DNA of 64,000 bases, from contig JAJDCA010000044.1 in assembly GCA_029261055.1 (NCBI GenBank), forward strand, positions 77,867-141,866. Reading direction: 5' to 3'. The notes below the pieces were generated by a model, which was not told where the DNA came from, searched no databases, and was given only the letters and a program-made list of their open reading frames with translations. Made by a program: the position numbers and the translations under genes. Positions 5,096-58,600 of this stretch are shown here, piece by piece; position 1 is the first letter of the stretch; each line of letters starts with the position of its first letter. This stretch comes from Candidatus Omnitrophota bacterium. GTDB lineage: Bacteria > Omnitrophota > Gorgyraeia > Zapsychrales > Zapsychraceae.

Positions 5096-8000
5096 ATGAT
5101 CTCCACTCGCTTACCAAACAGACTGGTGGTTTTCGTTATTATTCCGGCTTTTTGTTTCAGCTTGATTATTTTCCCGCCAACATCCTACGCTCAAAACGTT
5201 CTTAACCTTCCACAACTGGGAAGTATGGTTTCTATGAGTCCCGGCTTTAATCCAAGCATCATTCGAGGAATCACTGTCCACCATGATAATCCATTACGCT
5301 TTGATTTTATAGTGGATCGGGGTGATAACCAACTTGACGGTGAAGCTCTAAAGGAACACGGACTAAGGATGGTCAAATATTTCTTAGCCGCACTGACGGT
5401 TCCTGAGAATGAATTGTGGGTTAACCTTTCGCCTTACGAAAAAAATCGAATAATACCGGATACTTTAGGTCGAACAGAAATGGGGCGAGATCTTCTTGCG
5501 CAGGATTATTTACTCAAACAACTAACCGCTTCTTTTATGCATCCGGAGGAAATATTAGGCAAAGATTTTTGGGATAGAATTCACAAAAAAACTAGAGATA
5601 TGTTTGGAACGACGGAAATCCTGATCAACACTTTTAATAAAGTTTGGATTGTGCCGAAAAATGCAATTGTGTACGAAAATGGGCCAAGTGCATTTGTTTC
5701 CAATAGTCATCTGACAGTGATGTTAGAGCAAGACTATTTAGCATTACAAAAAGAAAATAATGTGGAATCTCTTAATGGCGTTGTTGCAGATATTATGAGA
5801 GATGTATTATTGCCTGAAATTGAAAAAGAGGTTAATGAAGGTGAACATTTCGCAAAGTTAAGGCAAGTATACAATTCAATGATTCTTGCGATGTGGTACA
5901 AGCGAAATTTGAAAAAAACACTTTTAGGCCACGTATATGTTGATAAAAATAAGGCAAAAGGAATTGATACCGACGATAAAGAAATCAAACAAAAAATTTA
6001 TGATCAGTATATTGAAGCCTTCAAAAAAGGAGTTTACAACTTTATTAGGGAAGATTATGACACGACAACACACGAGATTATTCCAAAGAAGTATTTTTCA
6101 GGAGGAATGGTTAAACCAGAGCATATGACGATTGAACCTGATTATGCACAACTTGCCCCAGATAATGAGGTACCCATTATAAATGAAATTGGAAATTTAG
6201 CTGTTTTGACAGTCCAAGGGTATGAACTCGGATTAGAATCGAATATTACAGCGGCTAAGTCGAATAAAGAATTCAAGGGGTCAGCAGGAAATTTTTTAAA
6301 AGAATTAGAACTAAACGAAAATCAAAATTTATTAAATAGACTTTTATCGGTGGAAGGCGTCGCTTATTCAGAAATATTAAAATTTCGAGAACCAGATGCT
6401 CAAAGGGCATCTGTGGCTTTAGAGTTGCAAATCTTGGCCGAGACAGTTTTTGAACGGTATACAAAGAATGGTAAAAGTTACTATCGGTTCAGGACGGATA
6501 TTCGTGAACTTCAAATATCACTTGCTGATACACGAAAACTTTTGAATGCAATAAGAAGTATTGATTTTGGAAGAAATGCAAAAATCAGAATTGGAGTCCG
6601 GGGCGAAACCAGACCATTCCATCGTGGAAATCCAAAGAAAGATTTAACGGTTGAACAATTAGATACACTTAAAGGGCGGGTTGATGTGCTTATTTTTAAA
6701 GCCAAAGGTGTTCAAGAGGAATTGCTGGCTTTGGTTGATGAAAACGGAAGATATCTGCGGGCTATCCCAAAATCTCAAAGGGAAACAAATAAGAACCCAG
6801 GTGAGTTTACACAAGGTTCAGTGATTATTGTCACTGATCGACAAGGAAATATTTTAATGCAAGAACGCTCAGATTATAAAATGCAAGGTATTACAAATTT
6901 TGGACCTATGGATTGGACGGTCGGTGGTCATCGTAATCCTGGTGAAACAGTAGAAGAAACTGCTTTACGAGAAGGGGGGGAAGAGACTCGAGGAAAAATT
7001 AATTTTAAATCAGAGCAATTATTTGAAATTGATCAGCGTGCTGTCAACCCTGAGCAGGATACCCGCTGGGTACGAAGGACGTATGTTTATGTTGCCACGG
7101 ATAATGAAAGAGAATCCATCAACCAAAATATGGCAGGAAAAAATTGGAGTACGAATGCCAATGCAGAAGTCAAATCTTTTGCATGGTGGTATCCTGATAA
7201 ATTTGAAGGATCGCTAGACAAAAAGTCATGGTCAACAGTTATAGACTTGTTACGTGATCTACCCAATTTTAATGAAATCATTCAAAAAACAATTGCTTTG
7301 TCTGGAAGTGAAAATGATTCTGCACAAATCGCACCAGTATTATTAACATTACGAAATACTTTATTAAGAATAAATTTTGATAAAACTGATGCAAGGTCAC
7401 ATATGTTAGATGCAAGAAAAATCATTGATGATATTGCAGTAAATTTTGATATTACTTTGGATTATTTAGAACAACTTCGTCAAGCGAAGAATCAAAAAAG
7501 AGGTGGCTTTGAAGAACGCATCATTTTGGATACTAAAGATGGGGAGGATGGAAAAGCCACGCCCGTGAGAAAATTAGTTCGTAACAAAATTCCACAAATG
7601 ATGGTTAAAAATGGACAGAAATTTGTGATACATTTTGCCAGTATGGAAGAATATCAAAACGAATTGTTCGCTAAATTATTTGAAGAATTTATGGAAGTCC
7701 AGAAAGCTGCAAGCAAAGGAAATGCGGATGCGTTGAGTGAGGAGCTGGCTGACCTTTTAGAAGTCATTGCTGCCGTGGAAAATCAAATCTCTTTTAAAAG
7801 TCTTTATTCACCAACTGTTGTAGCATTAGCTTCCTTAAGGCATTATTTTCCAGAGAAATTAAATCAAATTGAGGGAGAAGAGACTGCTCTCAATTGGATT
7901 AACGAATGGTTTATTTCAGAAAATATTTATTCCGGGAAAAATGTAAATGTTCAGTTACCCAAAAATACTCCAGCGTCAATAATTATAAGTCTTGATAAAA

Positions 8001-9105: not shown

Positions 9106-10470
9106 TTGGACATGTTGATTTCGAGTTTTCAAGACCATCCTTACCTTACACTCTCACTTTTAGCTGTTTTAATTAACATTCCCCTCGGGTACATTCGTGA
9201 AAACTGTCCAAGATTTTCGTTCAAATGGTTTTTTTGGATTCATGCGTCTATCCCGTTTATTGTGTATTTACGTATTGCTTTGGGGACAAGTAAGTTGTTT
9301 ATTCCGATGAGTATTTTTTTGGCAATCATTGGGCAGATGATTGGAAGTCGTTGGCGGCATAAGACAATGACTACGCAGGAATGGGACAAACTCAATCAGA
9401 TAGATTTAACCGTAAACGAACCTCGTAGGTTCGGAAATCCGAACCTACGAGGTTCGTTTACGGTTGTGCTTTTGAACATGGGGGGGCCGCGGACTAATGA
9501 AGATGTTCGGGATTTTCAGATTCAGTTGTTTTCTGATGCGCGGCTTATTCGGTTTCCGCTTTCGAAATTATTGCAGCCTTTATTTGCTCGTTTGCTATCA
9601 ACCCTCCGCAATCACAATGCCAAAGCCCGTTATCAACTTATCGGAGGTGGCAGCCCTATATTTAAATCAACGAAACAGCAGGCCCAGGCTTTGGACAAAG
9701 AATTAAAACAGCGAGGCATCAAGAACACCAACGTAACTTTTTCATTTAATTACAGTGAACCCTTGCCTGAAACAACTATTGAAGAGGTCAAGAAATCCGG
9801 AAAAGAATACATCTTACCTTTAAGCCTTTATCCGCATTATTCCGAAGCAACCACTGGTTCTAATATTCATTATTTAAAAAAGGCCGCACAAAAAATTTAT
9901 CCAGAAGTTCAATTTTTGCCTACGCCATCTTATTATTTACATGACGGCTACATTCAGGCTTTTGTGGATCGGATTCATGAACAAATTACACCGGAAGCAG
10001 GGGAGAACTTGGATGATTATTATTTGCTGTTCTCTGCACATAGCTTGCCGCTGTATTTTCTAAAAGAAGGCGATAAATATCCGTTTCAAATCGCGCAAAC
10101 TGTGGGACAAGTCGTTACAAAGCTCGGACGCAAAGATAATTGGAGCATTTCTTACCAGAGCGCTGTCGGGCCTTTGCAATGGGTTAAACCGTACACAGAA
10201 AATATGATCGCGGCCTTAGCAAAAAGAGGGGTCAAAAAACTTTTGATTGTGCCTATTTCATTTGTTACCGACCATATTGAAACATCCTGTGAAATTGACA
10301 TTGAATATCGCCATATGGCGGAAAATTTGGGAATACATGATTTTCGTATGTCCAAAGCCATTGAATGTCATGCCGGATTCATTAAGGCCCTAGCTGATTG
10401 TGTAGAAGACGTTGTCGCGCATGAAAAATCTTCCCAAAGAAAAGTTGAAAAAGAAAAGGTGATTTGCTAA
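9106..10470 (+). CDS. hemH: ferrochelatase with an N-terminal membrane extension of about 110 aa (454 aa total)
   Basis: C-terminal 330 aa carry ferrochelatase signatures (VVLLNMGGP, LSLYPHYSEATTGS, SAHSLP); the N-terminus has 2-3 predicted TM helices; a 27-bp perfect palindrome sits at the domain junction. Confidence 0.8.
   Translation: MDMLISSFQDHPYLTLSLLAVLINIPLGYIRENCPRFSFKWFFWIHASIPFIVYLRIALGTSKLFIPMSIFLAIIGQMIGSRWRHKTMTTQEWDKLNQIDLTVNEPRRFGNPNLRGSFTVVLLNMGGPRTNEDVRDFQIQLFSDARLIRFPLSKLLQPLFARLLSTLRNHNAKARYQLIGGGSPIFKSTKQQAQALDKELKQRGIKNTNVTFSFNYSEPLPETTIEEVKKSGKEYILPLSLYPHYSEATTGSNIHYLKKAAQKIYPEVQFLPTPSYYLHDGYIQAFVDRIHEQITPEAGENLDDYYLLFSAHSLPLYFLKEGDKYPFQIAQTVGQVVTKLGRKDNWSISYQSAVGPLQWVKPYTENMIAALAKRGVKKLLIVPISFVTDHIETSCEIDIEYRHMAENLGIHDFRMSKAIECHAGFIKALADCVEDVVAHEKSSQRKVEKEKVIC
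9408..9465. repeat. perfect 25-27 bp inverted repeat (ccgtaaacgaacctcgtaggttcgg / aaat / ccgaacctacgaggttcgtttacgg) lying in-frame inside hemH
   Basis: Arms 9410-9434 and 9439-9463 verified as exact reverse complements; GC-rich relative to surroundings; encodes ...TVNEPRRFGNPNLRGSFTV... linking the membrane domain to the ferrochelatase domain. Confidence 0.85.
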
Positions 10471-10479
10471 AGTAACACC

Positions 10480-12174
10480 ATGCCAACACTATCCGAACAT
10501 GATGTTTTTATCTTTGTAGCGCAACTGGGCGTTATTCTTATTTCCGCAAAAATTTTCGGTGAAATTGCCCGAAAATTAGAACAACCCATTATTGTCGGCG
10601 AAGTGATTGCAGGAATCCTGCTTGGGCCGATGTTATTCGGAAAATTTCTTCCAACCTATTACAATTTCTTATTTCCAAATACCGGGGCGCATCAATATCT
10701 TTTACAAGGCATCTCCTGGTTATGTGTTTTATTTTTACTCATGATTACCGGTTTGGAGATTGACTTCAGAGCCTCGATTAAAGAAGGGAAGCAGTGCTTT
10801 TTGATTTCAATCTTTGGACTTGTAATATCCTTAGGTGGCGTATTTCTTGTCACGCCGCTTTTGCCGGATTATTTCTATCCTGATGGGGTCAATCGATTCC
10901 ATGTCAATATGCTCATCAGCATTGCTTTGTCTGTGGTGGCTATCCCAGTCATTGCTAAAATTCTTTTTGATCTCAAAATTTTACGTTCTGAAGTTGGTGT
11001 CAAAATTTTGACGTCAGGAGTTTTAAGTGATATATGGGGATGGACCATCCTTGCGATTGCTATTTCTCTCATAGCCAGCGGCACCATTACAGCCGCCGTC
11101 ATTTTAAAACCGCTGATTACCATGATTCTTTATTTAACGGTTACGTTGACGATTGGCCGTGTCATTATTGATAAAATGCTAGATCTTTTTGGGTACAAAG
11201 AATTAGACACCACGCTGGCCATATCCTTGTTATTTTCACTTATGTTATTAAACGGCGCCGTGGCACATCTTTTAGGAATACATGTTATTTTTGGCGCTTT
11301 TATTGCCGGGGTCATGGCCGGTGAATCCACTAAAATTTCAGAATACATTCGACAATGGACGCAGGAATTTATTTTTGCCGTGTTTGCGCCCATATTTTTT
11401 GTGCTTATCGGTATGCAACTTCAATTTACAAAAGGGGAGATCTGGCTGCCGATCCTTATTTTATTTATTGCATCTTCAATCTGTAAAATTGCCGGCATGT
11501 TTTTCGGAGGTGTCTTGGGAAAAATGGGCCGAAAAAATGCCTTTGCGGTTGCCTGTGGGTTAAATACCCAGGGGACAATGGGTATTATCGTTGCGCTTAT
11601 TGCCTATGACATGGGAATATTTAATGATCATTTATTTTCGACTATTGTTGTTATTTGTATTTTAACCTCCCTTTTTGTCGGTCCCCTTTTGAAATGGGCC
11701 ATCGCAAGAGTGAAAAGGCCTTTGGCTAAATTTTTTGATCAAGAGCATGTTTTCTTAAATGTAGAAGGCGATTCAAAAAAGAAAGTTATCGAAAATATCG
11801 CAAAATTAATGGCTGAACGAAAAATTATTGATAATGAAGAATACATCCAGAAAATGATTTGGGAACGGGAACGTGTCATGAGTACGGCGATTGGGGATGG
11901 CATTGCCGTTCCACATGCCCGTATTAAAAATTTAAAAGAACCTATTCTATGTTTTTTTCGGCTCAAAGATCCCGTAGACTTTGCCAGCCCGGATAATCTT
12001 CCGGTGCAGTTATTGTTTTTAGAATTAACCGATCGCAATGATGATGGTATGCAATTAAATCTTATTGCTCAAATTGCCCGATTTATTTCAGCGGCAGACA
12101 ATCGTCAGCGCCTGCTCGATTGTGAAAAAGAAGAAGACATCCATCACATCCTAAGTTTTGATGAAAAAGTCTGA
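10480..12174 (+). CDS. monovalent cation:proton antiporter (CPA-type, about 12 TM) fused to a C-terminal PTS EIIA(Ntr/fructose)-type regulatory domain
   Basis: N-terminal 400 aa polytopic Na+/H+ exchanger-like; C-terminal 150 aa has the EIIA-2 signature DGIAVPHARI with a conserved His. Confidence 0.8.
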   Translation: MPTLSEHDVFIFVAQLGVILISAKIFGEIARKLEQPIIVGEVIAGILLGPMLFGKFLPTYYNFLFPNTGAHQYLLQGISWLCVLFLLMITGLEIDFRASIKEGKQCFLISIFGLVISLGGVFLVTPLLPDYFYPDGVNRFHVNMLISIALSVVAIPVIAKILFDLKILRSEVGVKILTSGVLSDIWGWTILAIAISLIASGTITAAVILKPLITMILYLTVTLTIGRVIIDKMLDLFGYKELDTTLAISLLFSLMLLNGAVAHLLGIHVIFGAFIAGVMAGESTKISEYIRQWTQEFIFAVFAPIFFVLIGMQLQFTKGEIWLPILILFIASSICKIAGMFFGGVLGKMGRKNAFAVACGLNTQGTMGIIVALIAYDMGIFNDHLFSTIVVICILTSLFVGPLLKWAIARVKRPLAKFFDQEHVFLNVEGDSKKKVIENIAKLMAERKIIDNEEYIQKMIWERERVMSTAIGDGIAVPHARIKNLKEPILCFFRLKDPVDFASPDNLPVQLLFLELTDRNDDGMQLNLIAQIARFISAADNRQRLLDCEKEEDIHHILSFDEKV

Positions 12175-13983: not shown

Positions 13984-14060
13984 TTAGGCCGCCCTCGGCG
14001 GCAACTTATGTGTCGCACGTCTCTCGTAAAAAAAACGAGTCACGCGCAACGAGTCACATT
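13984..14060. repeat. GC-rich intergenic element between atpF and atpH: hairpin gccgcc-ctc-ggcggc (13988-14002) plus a tandem direct repeat aacgagtcac x2 (14034-14043, 14048-14057)
   Basis: Seen in sequence; the cgagtcac motif recurs as gtgactcg inside the palindromic element within P4. Confidence 0.5.
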
Positions 14061-24383: not shown

Positions 24384-27317
24384 ATGTCTAAAAAACCTGA
24401 AAGCCATTACAATCTAGATAAACTTCACATGATTTTTGCCATTGCGGCATTGATTATGTTAGCTGCTTTTGGTGGCCTTTTTATGAAAGATTACGATCGA
24501 TCATGGAAGGATTACCAACGCGATTTCAATGGCTATGAAATGGAAAAGACCCGTGTCAAACATGATTCGGAATACAATGCTTTAAAAAATAACAAAGAAT
24601 ACACTACGCTTTTAAGTGAAATTGAAAAAGCTGAAAAAGAATTAAGCTCAAATTGTTCCGACATGGCGGATTTAGAAAATGAAATCGTCCAATTGAATAC
24701 TGAATACGACCTGATTAACCAAAAAGCTAAATTTACTAATGCCGAGGTTGATGCCGCCAAATATCAATTTGAAACAGCGGTTGGCCATCATCAAGGAGAT
24801 GCGGCTGCCACCAAAACGACCTTTTACAATTTAAAAAATAAGGGAGATGCGCTTAAAAATGATTTAGAAACCGCCAAAATTAAACTTGATGACAAAGTTG
24901 CCGCTAAAAAAAATTGTACCGCAAAACTGGATGATTTAAATCGTAAAAAGCGTAATTTATCTACCAAGGAAACTCTGCTTTTGCGCAAATTAAAAACAAT
25001 TGACCCCGAACAAATGTCCTTTATTACACGCATTGGAAACATCATTCGTGATCTTCCCGTCATTGATATGTCGAACCCAACGGTTAAGATAAAACAAGTT
25101 GTTCTCAAGGACATCACGGATGATCGTATTTTGACACAAGTTCCTAAGGTGGATCGATGTATGACGTGCCATTTGGGCATTGATGATCCAGGATACGCCA
25201 CCTTCCAACAACCCTTTAAGACCCATCCCAACCTTGAACTTTACTTGAGCAATGATTCGGAACATCCTGTAGAAGAATTTGGGTGTACCGTGTGTCATTC
25301 CGGTCGGGGAAGAGGTACGAGTTTTAATACGACCTCGCATGCCCCTTCATCTGAAAAACAAAAAGAAGAATGGGAAGAAAAATATGATTGGAAAGTGGAT
25401 CATCATTGGGAAGAACCCATGCTTCCAATTCAAAATGCGCAAGCCGGATGTTTTAAATGTCACAGTGAACAAACGCCTATTAAAGGTGCCGAAAAGTTAA
25501 ATTTAGGATTACAAATAATAGAGAAAGCTGGTTGTTACGGTTGCCATGACATCAAAAAATACAAAGACTGGCCAAAGGCTGGACCAGATCTTACAAAAAT
25601 TGCTTCAAAAACATCCAAAGAGTGGAGCTACAAGTGGATTCAAGATCCACATAAATTCCGCAAAAATACCTGGATGCCGGCATTTTTTAACCAATCCAAC
25701 AATAATGATGCTGCTTCTGTTAAACGCTCCCGTCAAGAAATTCATGCCATGGTGGAATATTTATTTAAAAATAGCGAAGCTTTTAAATTAAAAAATATTC
25801 CTTTTAAACGGGAACCTAAAAATGGAGAAAAGCTTGTTTCGTCTTTAGGGTGTTTAGCCTGCCATCAAATTGATCCGAAGGACACCCCAACCACACGGGA
25901 TTCTTTACGCCAACAGCATGGACCGAATCTGCTTGGATTAGGATCCAAGACATCAAAAGTCTGGCTTTTTCATTGGCTCAAGGATCCTAAACGGTACCAT
26001 CCTGAAACACGCATGCCTTCATTGAGACTTACGGATCAAGAAGCCGCCGACATTGCAGAATTCTTGGGTAATGACTCAAAAAAAGATTTTGACAAAACCC
26101 TCGTTCCTCCGGTAGACAAGACAGTGATCAATGAGATGACGTTTGATTTTCTCCACAAAATGGAACCAGCCCCGACCGCTAAAGCAAAATTAGCTAAGAT
26201 GTCGTTGAACGAAAAACTTGTGTACTCCGGCAAAAAATTAATCAGCCAATATGGATGTTACGCCTGTCATGACATCACAGGATTTGATGGGGCCAAGCCG
26301 ATTGGGACAGCGTTAACAGAAGAAGGCGAAAAGTCCCTGCATAAATTTGATTTCGGTTTTGTCCATATTGATCATTCAAAACATGCCTGGTTTGATCAAA
26401 AATTAAAAGACCCCCGTAGTTTTGATAAAGACAAAGTGAAAACAGCCCATGACAAATTAGTCATGCCTAATTTTGAACTGAGTGAAGAAGAACGTGAAGC
26501 GGTTGTAACGGCACTTTTAGGTTTTGTTTCGGAACGTACTGTTAAAAATAAAAAGAAAGCGCGTACACCTGAAAATTTAATGGTCGAAAAAGGACAAACC
26601 TTGGTGCGTCAGCTTAATTGTAAAGGCTGCCACATCATGGAAGATGAAGGTGGTTCTATTCAGCAAAGTATTATTGATTGGTTAGTCAAATACAAAGAAT
26701 ATGAACGGGGAGAAGCCCAAACCATTGTTACCAGCTTTGCACCACCGAATTTAATCGGCGAAGGCAAGAAGGTTCGACCACAATGGCTTTTTGATTTTCT
26801 CCATCATCCCACACCGATTCGCCCATGGTTAAACACACGTATGCCGACGTACACCTACACAGCCTCCCAACTGAACGGTTTACTTAAATATTTTACAGCC
26901 CTGGATGACGAAGAATTTCCGTTTACAGATAAAGTTGACACCCACATGTCGAAAGCAGAATTTGAAGCCGGCGAAAAATTATTTTCCAATGACTACTTTG
27001 GCTGTGCTAAATGCCACATTGTCGGTGACAAAATGCCAGGCGGATCCCCAGACAGCTGGGCGCCTAATTTTGCACTTTCAAAAGAACGTCTTAAACCGGA
27101 ATGGATTATTGAATGGATGATGAACCCAGCCGACCTTTTACCGGGAACCAAAATGCCGACCTATTTTGATCCAGACAACTTCGATGTCTCCGGACCCGAT
27201 GATTTACTTAATGGCGATGAACATGAACAAATACGTGTACTCCGAGACTATTTAATGAGTTTGTCAGAAAATCCCGAAACGTCACCCCAAAATGAATCAA
27301 CACCACCTACCGAATAA
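24384..27317 (+). CDS. membrane-anchored octahaem c-type cytochrome with a 200-aa N-terminal coiled coil
   Basis: Eight CxxCH motifs (CMTCH, CTVCH, CFKCH, CYGCH, CLACH, CYACH, CKGCH, CAKCH); N-terminal TM helix; 4-nt gap after the subunit-IV gene. Confidence 0.85.
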   Translation: MSKKPESHYNLDKLHMIFAIAALIMLAAFGGLFMKDYDRSWKDYQRDFNGYEMEKTRVKHDSEYNALKNNKEYTTLLSEIEKAEKELSSNCSDMADLENEIVQLNTEYDLINQKAKFTNAEVDAAKYQFETAVGHHQGDAAATKTTFYNLKNKGDALKNDLETAKIKLDDKVAAKKNCTAKLDDLNRKKRNLSTKETLLLRKLKTIDPEQMSFITRIGNIIRDLPVIDMSNPTVKIKQVVLKDITDDRILTQVPKVDRCMTCHLGIDDPGYATFQQPFKTHPNLELYLSNDSEHPVEEFGCTVCHSGRGRGTSFNTTSHAPSSEKQKEEWEEKYDWKVDHHWEEPMLPIQNAQAGCFKCHSEQTPIKGAEKLNLGLQIIEKAGCYGCHDIKKYKDWPKAGPDLTKIASKTSKEWSYKWIQDPHKFRKNTWMPAFFNQSNNNDAASVKRSRQEIHAMVEYLFKNSEAFKLKNIPFKREPKNGEKLVSSLGCLACHQIDPKDTPTTRDSLRQQHGPNLLGLGSKTSKVWLFHWLKDPKRYHPETRMPSLRLTDQEAADIAEFLGNDSKKDFDKTLVPPVDKTVINEMTFDFLHKMEPAPTAKAKLAKMSLNEKLVYSGKKLISQYGCYACHDITGFDGAKPIGTALTEEGEKSLHKFDFGFVHIDHSKHAWFDQKLKDPRSFDKDKVKTAHDKLVMPNFELSEEEREAVVTALLGFVSERTVKNKKKARTPENLMVEKGQTLVRQLNCKGCHIMEDEGGSIQQSIIDWLVKYKEYERGEAQTIVTSFAPPNLIGEGKKVRPQWLFDFLHHPTPIRPWLNTRMPTYTYTASQLNGLLKYFTALDDEEFPFTDKVDTHMSKAEFEAGEKLFSNDYFGCAKCHIVGDKMPGGSPDSWAPNFALSKERLKPEWIIEWMMNPADLLPGTKMPTYFDPDNFDVSGPDDLLNGDEHEQIRVLRDYLMSLSENPETSPQNESTPPTE

Positions 27318-27523
27318 TTTCATAAACCTTTACATATTAAAAATCACGCAAGTCTAAATTACGGTTCCTTTATCGACAAAAAATATCATGAAAGACATGA
27401 AATCGCTTTTAAGCAAAGATTAACGCATTCGGTTCAGAGGAGATCTCCTTCTGGTCGATCTCCAATTCACCTCATGCGCCAATCTTTGCTTTGAGCGATT
27501 GCGACGCTTAATTTGAGACCTTC

Positions 27524-27647
27524 GGTCAACCCGTCTTAACGAGAGGTTTTGTTAAAGCCTGTAGGCGAATTGGACGCAGCTCCCCGCAGGGGAGACCGTC
27601 CTCTGAGCCGAAAGGTTTTAACAAAACATCCAATAGACGGGTTGACT
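27524..27647 (+). ncRNA. candidate structured RNA / cis-regulatory element of about 125 nt
   Basis: 12-bp outer stem gtcaacccgtct(27525-27536)/agacgggttgac(27635-27646), 11-bp inner stem gttttgttaaa/tttaacaaaac, internal hairpins gcct-gt-aggc and ctcccc-gca-ggggag; local GC well above background; lies in the 470-bp gap upstream of the ECF sigma gene. Confidence 0.3.
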
Positions 27648-27788
27648 AAAAGTGTACTTTAATTTGACTTCACCCTAAATTCATGACTGGTTTACCAAAT
27701 ATTTATTTTTTAAAAATTTTCTGTAACTTTTTGCCTTTGTGTGCGTTTAATCTAGTGAGCCAAGGAGAAACTTAAAGGACGTAGCAAT

Positions 27789-28367
27789 ATGGAACAAAAA
27801 GACGAAGACCTAATGCTGCAATACCAAGCCGGTGATGACAAAGGAGTCGCCATGATTTTTCATCGGTACAAAACCAGAATTCTTAACTTTTGCCTGAGGA
27901 TCCTAGGTAATCGGGCAGATGCAGAGGATGTCACCGGAGATGTCTTCTTGGCTTTATTTGACAAAAAGTATGCCTTTACGCCTAAGGCAAAATTTTCAAC
28001 TTGGCTTTTCACGATTGCGCGCAACCGCTGCATTAGCCGGATGCGTAAAAAGAAAAATTTGGTCAATTTGTGGTTTACTAATAGAGAAAGCGGCAAAGTT
28101 GACCAATGGGATATTCCAGATACACAAGCATCATCACAAGAGGCCTTAGTTAAAAGGGAAGCCGCTGTTGCCGTTAAACAGGCCATCAGCCATCTTCCCT
28201 TGGCCCAAAAAGAAGCACTCGTTCTTCGAGAGTATCAAAAGTTTAGTTACCAGGAGATCAGTAAAATTCTTAATTGCAGTTTAGAAAATGTCAAAGTGCT
28301 TATCTTTCGTGCAAGAGAACAATTACGCAATGATCTTGCATCCTTCATAAAGGAGGGAGAGAAATGA
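27789..28367 (+). CDS. ECF-family RNA polymerase sigma factor
   Basis: Sigma-70 region 2 (FSTWLFTIARNRCI) and region 4 (YQEISKILNCSLENVKVLIFRAREQLR). Confidence 0.85.
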   Translation: MEQKDEDLMLQYQAGDDKGVAMIFHRYKTRILNFCLRILGNRADAEDVTGDVFLALFDKKYAFTPKAKFSTWLFTIARNRCISRMRKKKNLVNLWFTNRESGKVDQWDIPDTQASSQEALVKREAAVAVKQAISHLPLAQKEALVLREYQKFSYQEISKILNCSLENVKVLIFRAREQLRNDLASFIKEGEK

Positions 28368-30559
28368 CAGATCATACTCAAATAAAACAATTAATCTCAG
28401 CGCAATTAGATTGCGCAACCACTTCGGAAGAGAATAAGCTCATTACTGAGCATTTAAATACATGTGCATCCTGCCGGCAATACGCCGCAGAGCTTAACAA
28501 CCTTTCAATCGTATTCAAACAATGGCCGGACGAAGATTTATCTCCGGACCTACAACACAAGCTCGGCAGGGCTCTTCCGCAAGAGAATTCTAAGGGAGGC
28601 CGACCCATGAAACCAAAAAGTAATTTATTTAAAACAACCGTAGGTGGCGGTGTTTTAGTCACCATTATTGTTGGGATATTTGTTTTACAAATGTATTCAC
28701 AGAGGGCAATAAAAGTAGAGTTAAGAGATGGTTCAGTAAGAGACCTCATTGCCAGTGGTGAATTAGCACAATATGAGCCTTATTATTTAAAATCAAATTA
28801 CGAAATTAAAGAAGAAATTGCAAATCAACCCAGCACTCCAAGGGTGGATAAAATTGCTAAGCTAGATCAAAAATACTCTGAGGTAGACATGTTTGCTGCA
28901 GGTAAATCAAGTACACCTAAGAAAATTATGCCACAAAGTAAAAAGAAAACTACGTATGCCAAACAGGAAAAACGCCAAAGGGTTCAAAAGGGCATGCAGG
29001 TCGCTGAATACGATGCGCAATTACTTCGCGGTGAGGATAGGATTGCTGGATTTAGGAGTGTAGATGGTGTACCGACGGACTCTTTCGTGGCCTCCATCAT
29101 GCCGTATCCGCAAGAAAATTTTAACACGGAACAGTACAGTCACATCTCCGAAAATCAATTCCTTGAGGTTACGGAAAATCCATTGTCCACATTCTCCATT
29201 GATGTAGACACAGCGAGCTACAGCAATGTTCGTCGCTTCCTTAATAGTGGACAAATGCCACCGGAGGATGCGGTACGGATTGAAGAAATGATTAATTACT
29301 TTACCTACGACTATCCGGAACCAGACGGGAAAGATCCTTTCTCCATCACAACCAACGCAGCGGTCTGTCCGTGGAATACCGAACATCAATTAGTCCGCAT
29401 TGGATTACAGGGTAAAACTTTACAGTCAGAGAGCGTTCCGCCAAGCAATTTAGTTTTTCTCATGGACGTCTCCGGCTCCATGAATTCGGCCAATAAATTA
29501 CCCCTTCTAAAAAATGCCTTCAAAATGATGGTCAATCAACTCAGTGGCAAAGAGCGTGTGGCTATTGTCGTGTACGCCGGGGCTGCTGGCATTGTCCTGG
29601 AATCCACGCCGGGAGACAATAAACATAAAATCTTGGCGGCCATTGACCAATTAAGTGCCGGAGGTTCTACCGCCGGTGGGGCAGGGATTCAGTTAGCTTA
29701 CACTATTGCCAAAACCAATTTCATCAAAGGCGGCAACAACCGTGTCATCCTGGCCACCGATGGTGATTTTAATGTGGGTATGAGCAGTGATGGTGAACTG
29801 GTTCGCCTGATTGAAGAAAAACGTCAAGATGGTATTTTTCTGACGGTGCTTGGTTTCGGCACAGGCAATTACAAAGATGCCAAAATGGAACAATTAGCAA
29901 ACAAGGGTAATGGCAATTTCTATTACATTGACAATCAAAAAGAAGCCAGGAAGGTGATGATCAGTGAATTAGGTTCGACCCTTTTTACCATTGCCAAGGA
30001 TGTTAAACTTCAAATTGAATTCAATCCAGCACAAATCAAAGCTTACCGTCTTGTGGGTTACGAAAACCGGATGCTCGCTAAAGAAGACTTTAACGATGAC
30101 ACCAAAGATGCCGGTGAGTTAGGGGCTGGACATTCTGTCACCGCCCTTTACGAAATTGTCCCGGCGGATTCTGAAGAAGAATTCAAAGTTATTGATGATC
30201 TTGTCTACCAAAAAAGAGAGAGGATCGCAAGCAATGACCTCATGACCGTCAAATTACGTTACAAAGAACCTGATGCTAATAAAAGTAAACTTCTGAAACA
30301 AACAATTACTCAATCAGACTTAACTGAAGCGCCAAAGGGTGACTTCCAATTCGCCTCTGCCGTAGCCGAATTTGGCCTCATTTTACGCAATTCCACATTC
30401 AAATCCAAGGCCACCTACGAACAGGCTCTTCAGAATGCTCAAGCTTCTAAAGGAAAAGACGCCTACGGCTACCGCCAAGAATTCATCAACCTCATCCAAA
30501 AAGCTCAAACACTGGATACCCGTCCAAACACACCTGGAATTATTTTTAAAGGGCAATAA
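28364..30559 (+). CDS. anti-sigma factor (zinc-finger N-terminus, single TM) fused to a von Willebrand factor A domain (YfbK-like)
   Basis: HLNTCASCRQY zinc-binding anti-sigma motif; ATGA overlap with the sigma gene; TM at about aa 90; vWA MIDAS LVFLMDVSGSM...ATDGDFNVG. Confidence 0.8.
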   Translation: MTDHTQIKQLISAQLDCATTSEENKLITEHLNTCASCRQYAAELNNLSIVFKQWPDEDLSPDLQHKLGRALPQENSKGGRPMKPKSNLFKTTVGGGVLVTIIVGIFVLQMYSQRAIKVELRDGSVRDLIASGELAQYEPYYLKSNYEIKEEIANQPSTPRVDKIAKLDQKYSEVDMFAAGKSSTPKKIMPQSKKKTTYAKQEKRQRVQKGMQVAEYDAQLLRGEDRIAGFRSVDGVPTDSFVASIMPYPQENFNTEQYSHISENQFLEVTENPLSTFSIDVDTASYSNVRRFLNSGQMPPEDAVRIEEMINYFTYDYPEPDGKDPFSITTNAAVCPWNTEHQLVRIGLQGKTLQSESVPPSNLVFLMDVSGSMNSANKLPLLKNAFKMMVNQLSGKERVAIVVYAGAAGIVLESTPGDNKHKILAAIDQLSAGGSTAGGAGIQLAYTIAKTNFIKGGNNRVILATDGDFNVGMSSDGELVRLIEEKRQDGIFLTVLGFGTGNYKDAKMEQLANKGNGNFYYIDNQKEARKVMISELGSTLFTIAKDVKLQIEFNPAQIKAYRLVGYENRMLAKEDFNDDTKDAGELGAGHSVTALYEIVPADSEEEFKVIDDLVYQKRERIASNDLMTVKLRYKEPDANKSKLLKQTITQSDLTEAPKGDFQFASAVAEFGLILRNSTFKSKATYEQALQNAQASKGKDAYGYRQEFINLIQKAQTLDTRPNTPGIIFKGQ

Positions 30560-30617
30560 TTCAAATATCTGACGATTGAATTATTGTAACCTACTGAAAA
30601 TAAACAATAAAATACGA

Positions 30618-30651
30618 CTTATGAAATTGCCCCACGGGGCAATTTCATAAG
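30618..30651 (+). other. perfect 15-bp-stem hairpin cttatgaaattgcccc-acg-gggcaatttcataag
   Basis: Exact inverted repeat downstream of the vWA gene. Confidence 0.7.
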
Positions 30652-30654
30652 TCA

Positions 30655-30683
30655 AAAGTACGTACGCACGTACGTACTTTTTC
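30655..30683 (+). terminator. Rho-independent terminator: aaagtacgtacg-cac-cgtacgtacttt followed by a T-tract
   Basis: 10-bp stem followed by tttttc. Confidence 0.6.
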
Positions 30684-55645: not shown

Positions 55646-58600
55646 ATGAATAATTATTTACATTTCAGACAAAAAAATTTAGGTTATCGTATTTTAGCTG
55701 TTTTTGTGTGTTTTACATTTATAGCTGCTACGCTGACACCGCCGCAATACGCCCACGCGCAGGTTGCGCCTACCGCCGGGACTGTTCTTAATCTTCCTTT
55801 CCCCGGAAGCATGATTCAATCGACCGATGCGTTTACGCCTGTTTCTCTGTGGGGCATAACGCTTGATCCTCAGGATCCATTTAAATTTTATTTCACACTC
55901 GATAAAGGGCATACCGGTTTATCCGGTGAGGATTTGGAAGCGGAGGCGACACAATTGGCGAAATATTTTCTGGCGGCCTTAACCGTTCCGGAAGAAGAAA
56001 TGTGGGTAAATCTTTCGCCGTATGAAAAAAATCGTATCATTCCGCAAAGCTTCGGGGATACCGAAATGGGACGTGATCTATTGGCCCAGGATTATCTTTT
56101 AAAGCAACTCACCGCCTCGTTAATGTATCCAGAAGAGGATATTGGGGAAAATTTTTGGGAACGCATTTACGCCAAAGCCTATGAAAAGTATGGGACAACC
56201 GATATTCCGATGGATACGTTTCACAAGGTCTGGATCGTGCCGGAGCGTGCGCGTGTGGTGGAGGAAGGTAACAGTGCGTATATTGTGGATAGTTATTTGA
56301 AGGTGATGTTAGAGGATGATTATGTTGCTGCGCAACATAATCGTGGCGCGTCGCTCGTGACTCGTGACTCGGAAATAAAATCAAATTTGAAACGCGCCAC
56401 GCGTCACGAGCGACTAGCGACGAACCTTATCCGCGAAATAATCATTCCCGAAATCGAACGCGAGGTCAATGAAGGCGCAACATTCGCGAAGTTACGGCAG
56501 ATTTACCAATCCATGATTCTGGCCACATGGTACAAAATCCGCATGGAAGAAAGCCTGCTCGGTCAAATTTATGTCGATCAAAACAAAACCAAAGGTGTCG
56601 ATACGCATGATAAAAAAATAAATCAAAAAATCTACAATCAATATATCGCCGCCTTCCAGGAAGGCGTTTACGACTACATCAAAGAAGACTACGACCCAAT
56701 CACCCAAACCATTGTCCCGCGTAAATATTTTTCGGGGGGATTTTCTGGAAAACTAAGAAATTTCCTTATTATTATGAGCGCTACAGCAGCAATTAGTGCG
56801 GGCATCATATTCTCCAATTTAGGAATATCCAACGCAGGTACTTTTGATAGCCCAGGAAAAGAAACAGTTGCTGTAAGTCTGGTTAGTACTTCAAATAAAG
56901 GTCCTTCTACAATTAGAGATAGAAATAATGAAATACGTAAAAAACGCCATTCTAATAAAACCACTGTTGTTCAAAAAAAGGAAACCTTAAAAAAACCCCA
57001 AGAACAGAGTAATCCAATAAAAAACCTTACTTGGCAATTTAATGACAGTCTCAATGAAATAACAAAAAATAAGAAACAGGTCTCATCAACAACTGTAATT
57101 CAGCCCAATGATCCGTTGACTCCACTCGCAGATAATAAAATAACGCCTGAAACAAAAACAGACGACAATCAAGAAATTTCGAAACCGAAAGTGACAGTAG
57201 TTGATGAACCTCAGGATAATAACCTGAATGAATCAAATGAAATAAAAGTAACCGAAACATCGATAAAACAATCAAACGAAACCACTGAGCAGCCATCCAT
57301 ATCCGATGTCGACACTACTACTGAACAAAATGTCCAAACCACTCAAAATGATACTCTGGAAATCCAACCCCTGTCCATAGAAACTGACACTACGAAAGAG
57401 GAAAAATCCTCTTCAGGAAGTGACATACAAATTACAGAAACTATCAAAGAACCTACTACCAGCACCCAAGAACTAGTAAACCAATTTAAAAAAGATATTT
57501 CCGGAAACATTGATATTGAAGAAAATAAGCTTGCTGCAATACCTATTGCTCAACATTTAAAAGACAATCCTACTGATTGGGATGAATTTGCAAATATGGT
57601 TTTAACTGACCCAGATTATGATACGATCACCAAAATACTTCCCAATTTGTATTCGGTAGTTGATTTTGATAAATTGGAAATTTTACTTAAAAATCTTTCC
57701 GAAAGTCTATACGGCTATTGGAATTCCGTATTACAAAATAAGGCCACGAAAATACTCGAAGACCTCCAGCAGAAAGAATTCGACAGGATAATAAATAACT
57801 TCGTTAGTACCATTATTAATGGTGAATTAAATGATTATGACACTCACGAATACCCATTGATTGCCTTCGTAAAAAAACATCGCTTTCTATACCCAAAAAT
57901 GCAAGACACCTTATCTAATTATGACAATCAAGCAGTTAGAAAAATTTACCAACAGGATATTCTTCCGGAATTTGAAAATAGTGCAATCAAGACTATTAAA
58001 AATAAAGTACCGGAAAATGTCGACAATAAAGCCTCACAATTTATTAAAGAAAGACTTCCTGGTGATGAAGTTGAATCCATTAATATCGATATCAATAACC
58101 TTATGCCTTCCGGAGGTGTGGGGGAAACCTTATTAACAAATTATTTAAAAGAAAAAGGCATATACCTAATTTCTCTATTGTTAGGCGTAGGGAGCCTTGG
58201 CTTTTTTATATTGATTTGGGGGAAAAAATGGATATCAGAATTTTTTATGAAAAGAACATCTGTTAACTCTACTACATCAAGAAATATTAATAAAACATCA
58301 AACAAACAAATGCAAATTAATCCTATCAAAACCAATTTTCCACCGAATAACTCTCCAAAATCTATTGAAGATCCTAATAATGCACCTACTTTTCTAAATA
58401 CAATTCAACGTAAACCTTCTTGGATCATTGATGTACCGTCATCGATTTATGATGTACAAATGAAATTATCCCAAAAAAATATCAAACTAAAAAATGATTT
58501 ACTAAATATCATTGTAAATGTGGCAAAACCCACCAGATCTGATCTAAATACTGTCAAAGCTATCAAAATAGCACAAAAACTTGATTTTCACATTGCAAGC

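Follow-up and report, generated by a model that had tools for sequence, protein, structure and literature searches.

The stretch of DNA analyzed here, referred to as the window, consists of 64,000 nucleotides (nt) from a Candidatus Omnitrophota bacterium (assembly GCA_029261055.1, contig JAJDCA010000044.1, positions 77,867 to 141,866 of the forward strand), with a guanine plus cytosine (GC) content of ~39%. Four large paralogous proteins encoded in the window, P1 (1846-5049), P2 (5096-8242), P3 (44837-54517) and P4 (55646..59590, + strand), have a domain of ~350 amino acid (aa) residues in common, here called the N-domain. P4 is an intact open reading frame (ORF) of 1314 aa and hosts, within one loop of its N-domain, a GC-rich hairpin at 56341-56423 whose two arms are arrays of degenerate heptanucleotide units. 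Elements of the same class were found in the same loop of other Omnitrophota proteins as well as in intergenic DNA.

The hairpin in P4 and its host domain

Similar to the other members of the N-domain family in the window, P4 has a hydrophobic N-terminus that is signal-peptide-like by appearance (no predictor was run). The loop in question lies between two anchors conserved in the family, VMLE(E/D)DYVA and (I/V)RE..(I/L)PEIE.EVN. In P1 (2410..2493, + strand) and P3 (45527..45610, + strand), it is of the canonical length of 28 aa (ENLGVEEYGLDSITKEESTIISGVSSEV and similar), and the loop of P3 is unstructured at the nucleotide level (z +0.2 to +0.8) and represents the ancestral state. In P2, the loop is shortened to 15 aa (5750..5794, + strand), which shows that deletion is tolerated at this position. 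In P4, the replaced loop-coding segment spans 56336..56428 on the + strand and encodes the 31 aa HNRGASLVTRDSEIKSNLKRATRHERLATNL between the anchors LEDDYVAAQ and IREIIIPEIEREVN. These 31 residues are unrelated to the loops of the paralogs, and no P4-like loop peptide was found among 120 homologs. Because 93 nt replace the canonical 84 nt in the DNA alignment, the reading frame of P4 is kept. Thus, the initial annotation was right in describing a GC-rich palindromic block that replaces a segment of the P4 N-domain, and the contrast that it drew between the P4 peptide and that of a paralog was also correct. Across the homologs, loops of 15 to 72 aa were observed.

The P4 N-domain was modeled with AlphaFold2 on an alignment of 70 sequences, which gave a predicted template modeling score (pTM) of 0.81. 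The replaced segment corresponds to residues 193-223 of the modeled domain and starts within one of its lowest-confidence internal stretches (block means of the predicted local distance difference test of 64-67 for residues 191-210). The N-domain had no Pfam match and its fold had no significant match in the PDB; the best non-significant matches (E 0.19) were to the ClyA-type alpha-pore-forming toxin components NheA, MakB and SmhA. Homologs of the large paralogous proteins of the window were almost exclusively from Candidatus Omnitrophota, and the N-domain family as a whole has more than 1,200 homologs, nearly all of Omnitrophota. The C-terminal parts of the family differ, with NUDIX/MazG in P2, HEAT/DUF3179 in P3 and ankyrin repeats in P0107.

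The P4 hairpin is imperfect. Its left arm (56341..56371, 68% GC) and right arm (56393..56423, 71% GC) are each 31 nt long and 81% complementary, and they enclose an AT-rich apical loop of 21 nt (GAAATAAAATCAAATTTGAAA, 56372..56392, 14% GC). Read in register, the element is TCGTGGC GCGTCGC TCGTGAC TCGTGAC TCGG / aaataaaatcaaatttgaaa / CGCGCCA CGCGTCA CGAGCGA CTAGCGA CGAAC, with the left arm ending at TCG and the complementary heptamers of the right arm ending at CGA. Each arm thereby comprises ~4.5 degenerate heptamer units, only two adjacent units being perfect. The period-7 scores of the left and right arms were 0.76 and 0.73, respectively, and those of all other periods from 3 to 11 were 0.38 or lower; none of 20,000 shuffles matched the period-7 scores at any period from 4 to 11. 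The tandem TCGTGAC pointed out in the initial annotation is indeed present, as part of this 4.5-unit array, whose periodicity had been overlooked.

At the core of the hairpin, GTCGCTCGTGAC (56350-56361) pairs perfectly with GTCACGAGCGAC (56403-56414). The inverted repeats had been described as nested. They are in fact interleaved (A B ... A' B'), the same arms being able to pair in two registers that are 21 nt, or 3 heptamers, apart. A pseudoknot formed from these interleaved repeats was rejected as sterically impossible, because it would leave 0 nt for loop 1 and 1 nt for loop 3. The minimum free energy of the hairpin as RNA was -41.3 kcal/mol (z -5.63), and none of 200 dinucleotide shuffles was equally stable. 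Folded as DNA, the hairpin had a free energy of -23.3 kcal/mol (z -3.64), which again no shuffle equaled. An intrinsic terminator was also rejected, as the hairpin is surrounded by an intact ORF and the sequence after it is ACCTTATCC. A scan with Rfam 15 at the gathering threshold gave no match in the whole window.

The exact P4 protein was recorded from the NCBI assembly as well as from a Logan assembly, and the Logan assembly of SRR15505515 has the very same sequence for the atpF-atpH spacer of the window, which contains a related element described below. Both results argue against an assembler artefact. The reverse complement of the apical loop (56372-56392) matches, over 15-19 nt, the codons of a conserved P-L-x-F-D-F-I motif ~470 nt upstream; such match sites were also found at window position ~1959 and at about 30 loci, ~100 nt into the N-domain. 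As control AT-rich 21-mers matched the N-domain family at 4-6%, the possibility that the apical loop is an inverted copy of the FDFI codons of the family was set aside as probably chance (empirical p ~0.05).

The same loop in other Omnitrophota

For comparison, 1.82 Mb of DNA were surveyed from ~160 Omnitrophota loci that were picked for encoding the N-domain family. They comprise 80 metagenome loci, 78 loci from named metagenome-assembled genomes (MAGs) and the window. Survey loci are designated below by the letter L and a number. The scanned GTDB representative genomes did not include the genome of the window, their best hit being 65%. Frame and stop codons were checked in 178 loops and structure was assessed in 165 distinct loops, of which 80 were of canonical length, the modal one, and 85 of non-canonical length.

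Strong hairpins were almost confined to the loops of non-canonical length. The mean z was -0.23 for the canonical-length loops, of which 1/80 reached z <= -3 and 0/80 had heptamer periodicity, whereas the mean z was -2.0 for the non-canonical ones, with z <= -3 in 28/85 and heptamer periodicity in 18/85 (Fisher p 1.3e-8 for the hairpins and 3e-6 for the heptamers). These counts support the earlier suggestion that the P4 segment is a discrete element rather than the product of ordinary fast divergence. The loop is highly variable in length and sequence, as would be expected if the palindrome had arisen by chance in a fast-evolving, unconstrained loop. However, such a chance origin is refuted by the recurrence of strong hairpins in loops of non-canonical length and by the shuffles of the P4 hairpin, none of which reached its stability or its periodicity, and it retains virtually no probability.

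At least nine heptamer types, whose sequences are mutually unrelated, were found in the same loop in different lineages. Their units include ACGAAGG/ACGAGGG in L069, GCAGAGG in L039, AGCGATA in L075, CGAGCAT in L047, TAGCTCA in UBA10174, GAGACCA in L068, CAGTCAT/CAGACGT in SMAG_U7936 and GGTCCGT in L126. The nearest relatives of the hairpin loops, as judged by flank identity, often have a canonical loop. These patterns are evidence for independent origins of the heptamer hairpins in different lineages. Moreover, L099 and L087, which are paralogs from the same assembly with near-identical flanking DNA, have unrelated repeat hairpins in the loop. The loop is therefore a site at which palindromic sequence recurs and turns over fast.

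Palindromes of other kinds were also observed in this domain. Non-periodic GC-rich palindromes in the same loop included those of the AESRAPARD type (L026/L027/L034) and those of the CCCCCTCTTT...AAAGAGGGGG type (L043). The loop hairpin of L087 (1597-1722) has arms with a period of 8 (GGTCACAA AGTCACAA AGTCACAA G) instead of 7, and the loop accepts repeat registers besides 7. A second in-frame hot spot is situated ~220 nt upstream of the main loop, where heptamer hairpins of GACGTTA/GACGCTA units take the place of the ...YGTTDIP.NTFNKVW segment (L094 10058-10127 and L153 14216-14246). Finally, in UBA10174 (L121 ~10520-10570, which equals L054 3520-3570), a 48-nt in-frame insertion directly upstream of the loop duplicates the L-x-x-D-Y anchor (LAVDYEAQ... 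then LEQDYLAR) and contains the hairpin CGCCGTTG...CAACGGCG.

All of the 178 loops were in frame and free of stop codons. The idea that such elements tolerate, or are selected for, in-frame residence therefore holds for the residence itself. Selection for it is unnecessary, since in-frame status is predicted by survivorship. The same result bears on whether the P4 array could be a contingency (phase-variation) site, at which gain or loss of a 7-nt unit would shift the frame and switch a possibly secreted paralog off or on. A 7-nt unit does not comprise whole codons, the paralogous family is large and its members in the window have signal-peptide-like N-termini, the phylum is thought to be predatory or parasitic, and heptamer simple sequence repeats (SSRs) drive phase variation in some pathogens (PMC4692102). 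However, no OFF allele was seen among the 178 loops, the arrays are degenerate and the perfect adjacent units of P4 number only two. Phase variation is thus a highly unlikely explanation.

In the folding of the hairpin loops as RNA, the antisense strand was at least as stable as the sense strand in 23/29 cases (Wilcoxon p 0.04), and for P4 the sense and antisense values were -46.2 and -48.0 kcal/mol, respectively. Selection for sense-strand RNA structure was thus not seen among the 29 hairpin loops. This lack of a sense-strand folding advantage suggests that the hairpins are DNA-level palindromes rather than selected mRNA structures. The antisense bias could reflect either avoidance of very stable mRNA structure or codon constraints.

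Heptamer elements outside the loop

The surveyed DNA contained 78 period-7 tracts, whereas other periods from 4 to 15 gave 4-17 tracts each and shuffled DNA gave 3. Grouping of the 78 tracts resulted in 63 elements, ~28 of which are in apparent intergenic DNA, many of them as long hairpins. For 18 of these 28 intergenic elements, an ORF start follows at a distance of no more than 60 nt. Among the long hairpins, the element at 20-151 of L039 has CAGTTAT/CAGTTGT arms in which TAACTGA units are contained (~-66 kcal/mol), and its part at 104-151 consists literally of TAACTGA/CAACTGA. An in-frame heptamer element elsewhere in a family protein was found at 5840-5966 of L041. The family loops make up ~1% of the sampled DNA and contain ~30% of the heptamer elements, by arithmetic from these counts. 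The heptamer class pervades Omnitrophota genomes and resides mainly in short 5' leaders or intercistronic spacers and in structurally permissive loops of the N-domain family. No universal core motif emerged for all heptamer units, which are diverse.

In the window, the second element of this class is in the atpF-atpH spacer (14010..14058), where it forms the imperfect hairpin GTGTCGC ACGTCTC TCGT(A)8 ACGAGTC ACGCGCA ACGAGTC AC and has its end 24 nt before the atpH start. This hairpin is weaker than that of P4 and is of the same heptamer type. The sequence CGAGTCAC occurs 4 times in the window, compared with 0.46 expected, as two tandem pairs, one in the P4 element and one in the atp spacer. 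Thus, the link between P4 and the atp spacer that the initial annotation had proposed is real. Moreover, 17 identical bases (GCTCGTGACTCGTGACT) were found between P4 and an intergenic hairpin of the related MAG L082 (chance expectation 0.015), whose family-protein identity to the window is among the highest.

Sharing of units within a genome is not limited to the window. A common 9-mer was found for 16/64 element pairs within a genome (25%) and for 55/1766 pairs between genomes (3%). Besides P4 and the atp spacer, units are shared by two loops and two intergenic sites in SMAG_U7936, and, in both L104 and L126, by a loop and an intergenic site. Between paralogs, the elements were 78-86% identical, whereas their conserved coding flanks were 59-73% identical, and in UBA10174 the left arm was identical at 25/25 nt in three paralogs.

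The sharing of units and the conservation of the elements beyond that of the flanking codons would also be expected if the hairpins were functional cis-elements under nucleotide-level selection, either as arrays of binding sites for a genome-specific protein that binds RNA or DNA or as stem-loops for mRNA stability or processing, with the P4 copy modulating expression of this paralog. In addition, the 18 intergenic members close to ORF starts resemble the TAACTGA repeats that were proposed as sites for a translational regulator (PMC4679880), and the atp element is between two cistrons that need different expression levels. However, 80 of the 165 family loops have no such structure, so that the gene family does not need the hairpin. 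Moreover, the units differ between genomes and even between near-identical paralogs, there is no sense-strand folding advantage, and no Rfam match was obtained. A function of the hairpins as cis-elements is thus an unlikely, if serious, alternative.

The degree to which elements exceed their flanks in conservation, the units common to coding and intergenic sites and the concentration of ~30% of the elements in ~1% of the DNA are compatible with a more speculative proposal, which we regard as improbable. In it, an active process of the Omnitrophota, such as a dedicated enzyme or targeted gene conversion, would write or copy genome-specific heptamer hairpins into one exposed loop of a very large family of effector-like proteins. 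Hypervariability, or contingency switching, would then be programmed at this loop, and the arrays found in 5' leaders would be part of one system with it.

Origin of the element and comparison with known repeats

The element at 56341-56423 is probably a heptanucleotide-repeat palindromic element, similar to the long SSRs and the short tandemly repeated repetitive (STRR) sequences of other bacteria, that originated from slippage, template switching and ectopic conversion and is carried as a translated passenger. Several features of the related loops bear on this origin. The arrays start inside the codons of the conserved Y-L-A-L/Q anchor, as would be expected if native heptamers seed slippage. 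For example, TAT TTA GCT CTT AGC reads as TTAGCTC TTAGCTC ATCGCTC ATAGCTC, and TTA GCG CAG AGT reads as GCGCAGA GTGCAGA GGGCAGA. A difference of about two units separates L062 from L152 and is accompanied by compensating changes in the opposite arm. Finally, L087 from assembly CAYIQK01 has at 1825-1852 a perfect 28-nt GTAG...CTAC palindrome (GTAGGGACAGGTCG/CGACCTGTCCCTAC), which, in comparison with L099 of the same assembly, whose flanks are near-identical, represents a clean in-frame insertion of 18 nt. The left arm of this palindrome is a copy of the adjoining native GGGACA(A/G)GTC, and the resulting pattern of X, reverse complement of X and X is a signature of template switching. Further perfect palindromes of the GTAGGGGC type were observed at L096 6853 and L107 7961.

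In the mechanism that we infer, arrays would first arise and grow via replication slippage in the 7-nt register that is known for bacterial long SSRs. Palindromy would then be gained and kept via intrastrand template switching, or quasi-palindrome correction, a form of mutagenesis reportedly described by Ripley in 1982 and in work of the Lovett laboratory. Ectopic recombination or gene conversion would spread the units among sites of one genome, and genic copies would survive only if they alter the overall length by a multiple of three, introduce no stop codon and are tolerated by the protein. In P4, the ribosome would read through the element as 31 unrelated residues, and this peptide would be a neutral passenger with no required function.

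Several points weigh against this origin. As P4 has just two perfect adjacent units, ongoing slippage is not demonstrated. No second full-length P4 element was present in the 64-kb window or in 1.8 Mb of related DNA, and the atp element resembles that of P4 in unit type only and not as a whole element. Slippage alone leaves unexplained why units recur at unlinked intergenic and coding sites and why elements are more conserved than the flanking codons, both of which also fit nucleotide-level function or active copying. Furthermore, the z-scores of the survey script were obtained with mononucleotide shuffles, and, given that the survey loci were selected for the N-domain family, any comparison with the rest of the genome is limited to the neighborhoods of these genes.

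A conventional non-autonomous transposable element inserted by a transposase, either a miniature inverted-repeat transposable element (MITE) or an element like the repetitive extragenic palindromic (REP) sequences and their paired form, REPIN, would be another source of such hairpins. The arms of the P4 hairpin, 31 nt long and 81% complementary, resemble terminal inverted repeats, the families are genome-specific, perfect palindromes of the REP-type GTAG...CTAC form are present in these genomes and in the N-domain family, and Rickettsia palindromic elements (RPEs) provide a precedent for in-frame palindromic insertion (PMC10969869). However, the P4 element has no target-site duplication; the flanking similarity between CGCAACATAATC (56331-56342) and CGCGAAATAATC (56432-56443) is not one, because it consists of codons homologous to those of the paralogs. 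In addition, the copies vary in unit number and order and are not full-length copies, there is no second full copy in the 64 kb, and the arrays begin within native codons. A classification as MITE or REP thus fails for MITE on target-site duplication and full-length copies and is not established for REP, and transposition is quite an unlikely origin of the element.

The initial annotation had also grouped the P4 block with a palindrome in hemH as a family of small palindromic elements that reside in frame within coding sequences. Entry of a palindrome into coding sequence is borne out by the insertion at L087 1825-1852; membership of the hemH palindrome is not shown. This palindrome (9408-9465), whose perfect arms of 28 nt flank a spacer of 2 nt, is in frame in the ORF 9106-10470, whose Pfam ferrochelatase match starts at residue 119. 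It was rejected as a member of the same family, as it is not periodic (period-7 score 0.33) and is upstream of the start of the ferrochelatase match. It lies either behind a hydrophobic segment of ~90 aa, in an N-terminal extension or linker, or in the 5' leader, should translation truly start at GTG 9466. The Logan contig with the atp operon begins almost exactly at the center of the hemH palindrome (window position ~9436, by arithmetic) and ends (~27463, by arithmetic) inside a cluster of three long imperfect inverted repeats at 27411-27653 (27411-27491, 27518-27653 and 27543-27630). This cluster is in a 470-nt gap between the ORFs 24384-27317 and 27789-28367 and had no Rfam match at the gathering threshold. 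Two adjoining perfect palindromes with arms of 18 nt (30616-30653) and 13 nt (30654-30681) directly follow the ORF 28364-30559, and this pair (30616-30681) may be a bidirectional terminator.

Among known repeats, STRR sequences of cyanobacteria also occur in RNase P RNA, and a heptanucleotide stem is found in the tRNA-Leu intron of Nostoc. Heptanucleotides are described as the commonest long SSRs of bacteria, and their proposed cause is slippage of the polymerase in a register of 7 nt (Mrazek et al., 2007, as cited in PMC4679880 and PMC4692102). TAACTGA arrays of Beggiatoaceae, Cyanobacteria and Bacteroidetes are located just upstream of start codons and occasionally in ORFs at permissive ends (PMC4679880). 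Similar to these long SSR and STRR arrays, the Omnitrophota elements consist of tandem 7-nt units, usually in 2-7 copies in the known arrays, with genome-specific sequences and an excess of period 7, and they are mostly intergenic, often directly upstream of start codons, with occasional permissive copies in ORFs (PMC4679880, PMC4692102). Different from them, the Omnitrophota arrays are typically inverted pairs that form long hairpins, are degenerate rather than perfect, and repeatedly replace, in frame, one loop of one protein family.

In Geobacter metallireducens, heptanucleotide families of 4-5 units are found within and between genes, such as MTYCTGA x5, drawn as strand-switching pairs, and GGACCGG x4 (PMC2700814), and paired inverted GGGAATC arrays are known from Xanthomonas (PMC4692102). 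The Omnitrophota elements are similar to both in having 4-5 heptamers, inverted stem-loop pairs and locations within and between genes (PMC2700814, PMC4692102). However, the Geobacter and Xanthomonas arrays are multicopy with one consensus per genome and are read as regulator binding sites, and they have not been described as recurring in frame at a hot spot of one protein family. Omnitrophota are not mentioned in this heptanucleotide-repeat literature (PMC4679880, PMC4692102, PMC2700814), nor are such repeats mentioned in two papers on giant proteins of Omnitrophota.

RPEs are palindromic repeats that lie in frame in coding genes at positions compatible with the protein fold and are translated as an extra peptide (PMC10969869). 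Similar to RPEs, the P4 element is in frame within an intact coding gene and is translated. However, RPEs are ~150 bp long, have a conserved consensus and encoded peptide and occur in many unrelated genes, whereas the Omnitrophota elements are ~60-130 bp long, have only the heptamer unit as a consensus and cluster in a single loop of a single family, with loop peptides and DNAs that are unrelated among the homologs bearing hairpins. Like REP and REPIN sequences, they are short and GC-rich, form imperfect palindromes, are specific to a genome and are located mostly outside genes (PMC3116915, PMC3733652). Different from these, the P4 arms are internally periodic at 7 nt and are without GTAG or an end-placed CGTC, as read by eye with no systematic search for such tags. 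No REP-associated tyrosine transposase (RAYT) was identified, and none was searched for. Finally, quasi-palindrome template switching accounts for the perfection or extension of imperfect inverted repeats in situ and for the arrangement at L087 1825-1852. It is, however, a mutational process and not an element family, and alone it explains neither the 7-nt register nor the sharing of units at unlinked sites.

The Omnitrophota elements combine such features, being inverted heptamer arrays that are in frame and recurrent at one loop of one phylum-specific family. Heptanucleotide arrays, a little-studied class of repeats, can become palindromic and repeatedly remodel a coding loop in frame, which adds a second, mechanistically different case of selfish DNA within genes beside that of the RPEs. 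The canonical loops, seeded arrays and full hairpins form a natural series of before and after alleles for the birth of palindromes, with slippage and template switching on the one side and transposition on the other. Moreover, a phylum-wide, unannotated N-domain family with a recurrent insertion loop is useful for annotation, for avoiding false calls of frameshifts or pseudogenes and for strain typing. If the hairpins turn out to have a function or to be targeted actively, they would constitute a new device for regulation or diversification in a largely uncultured, possibly predatory phylum.

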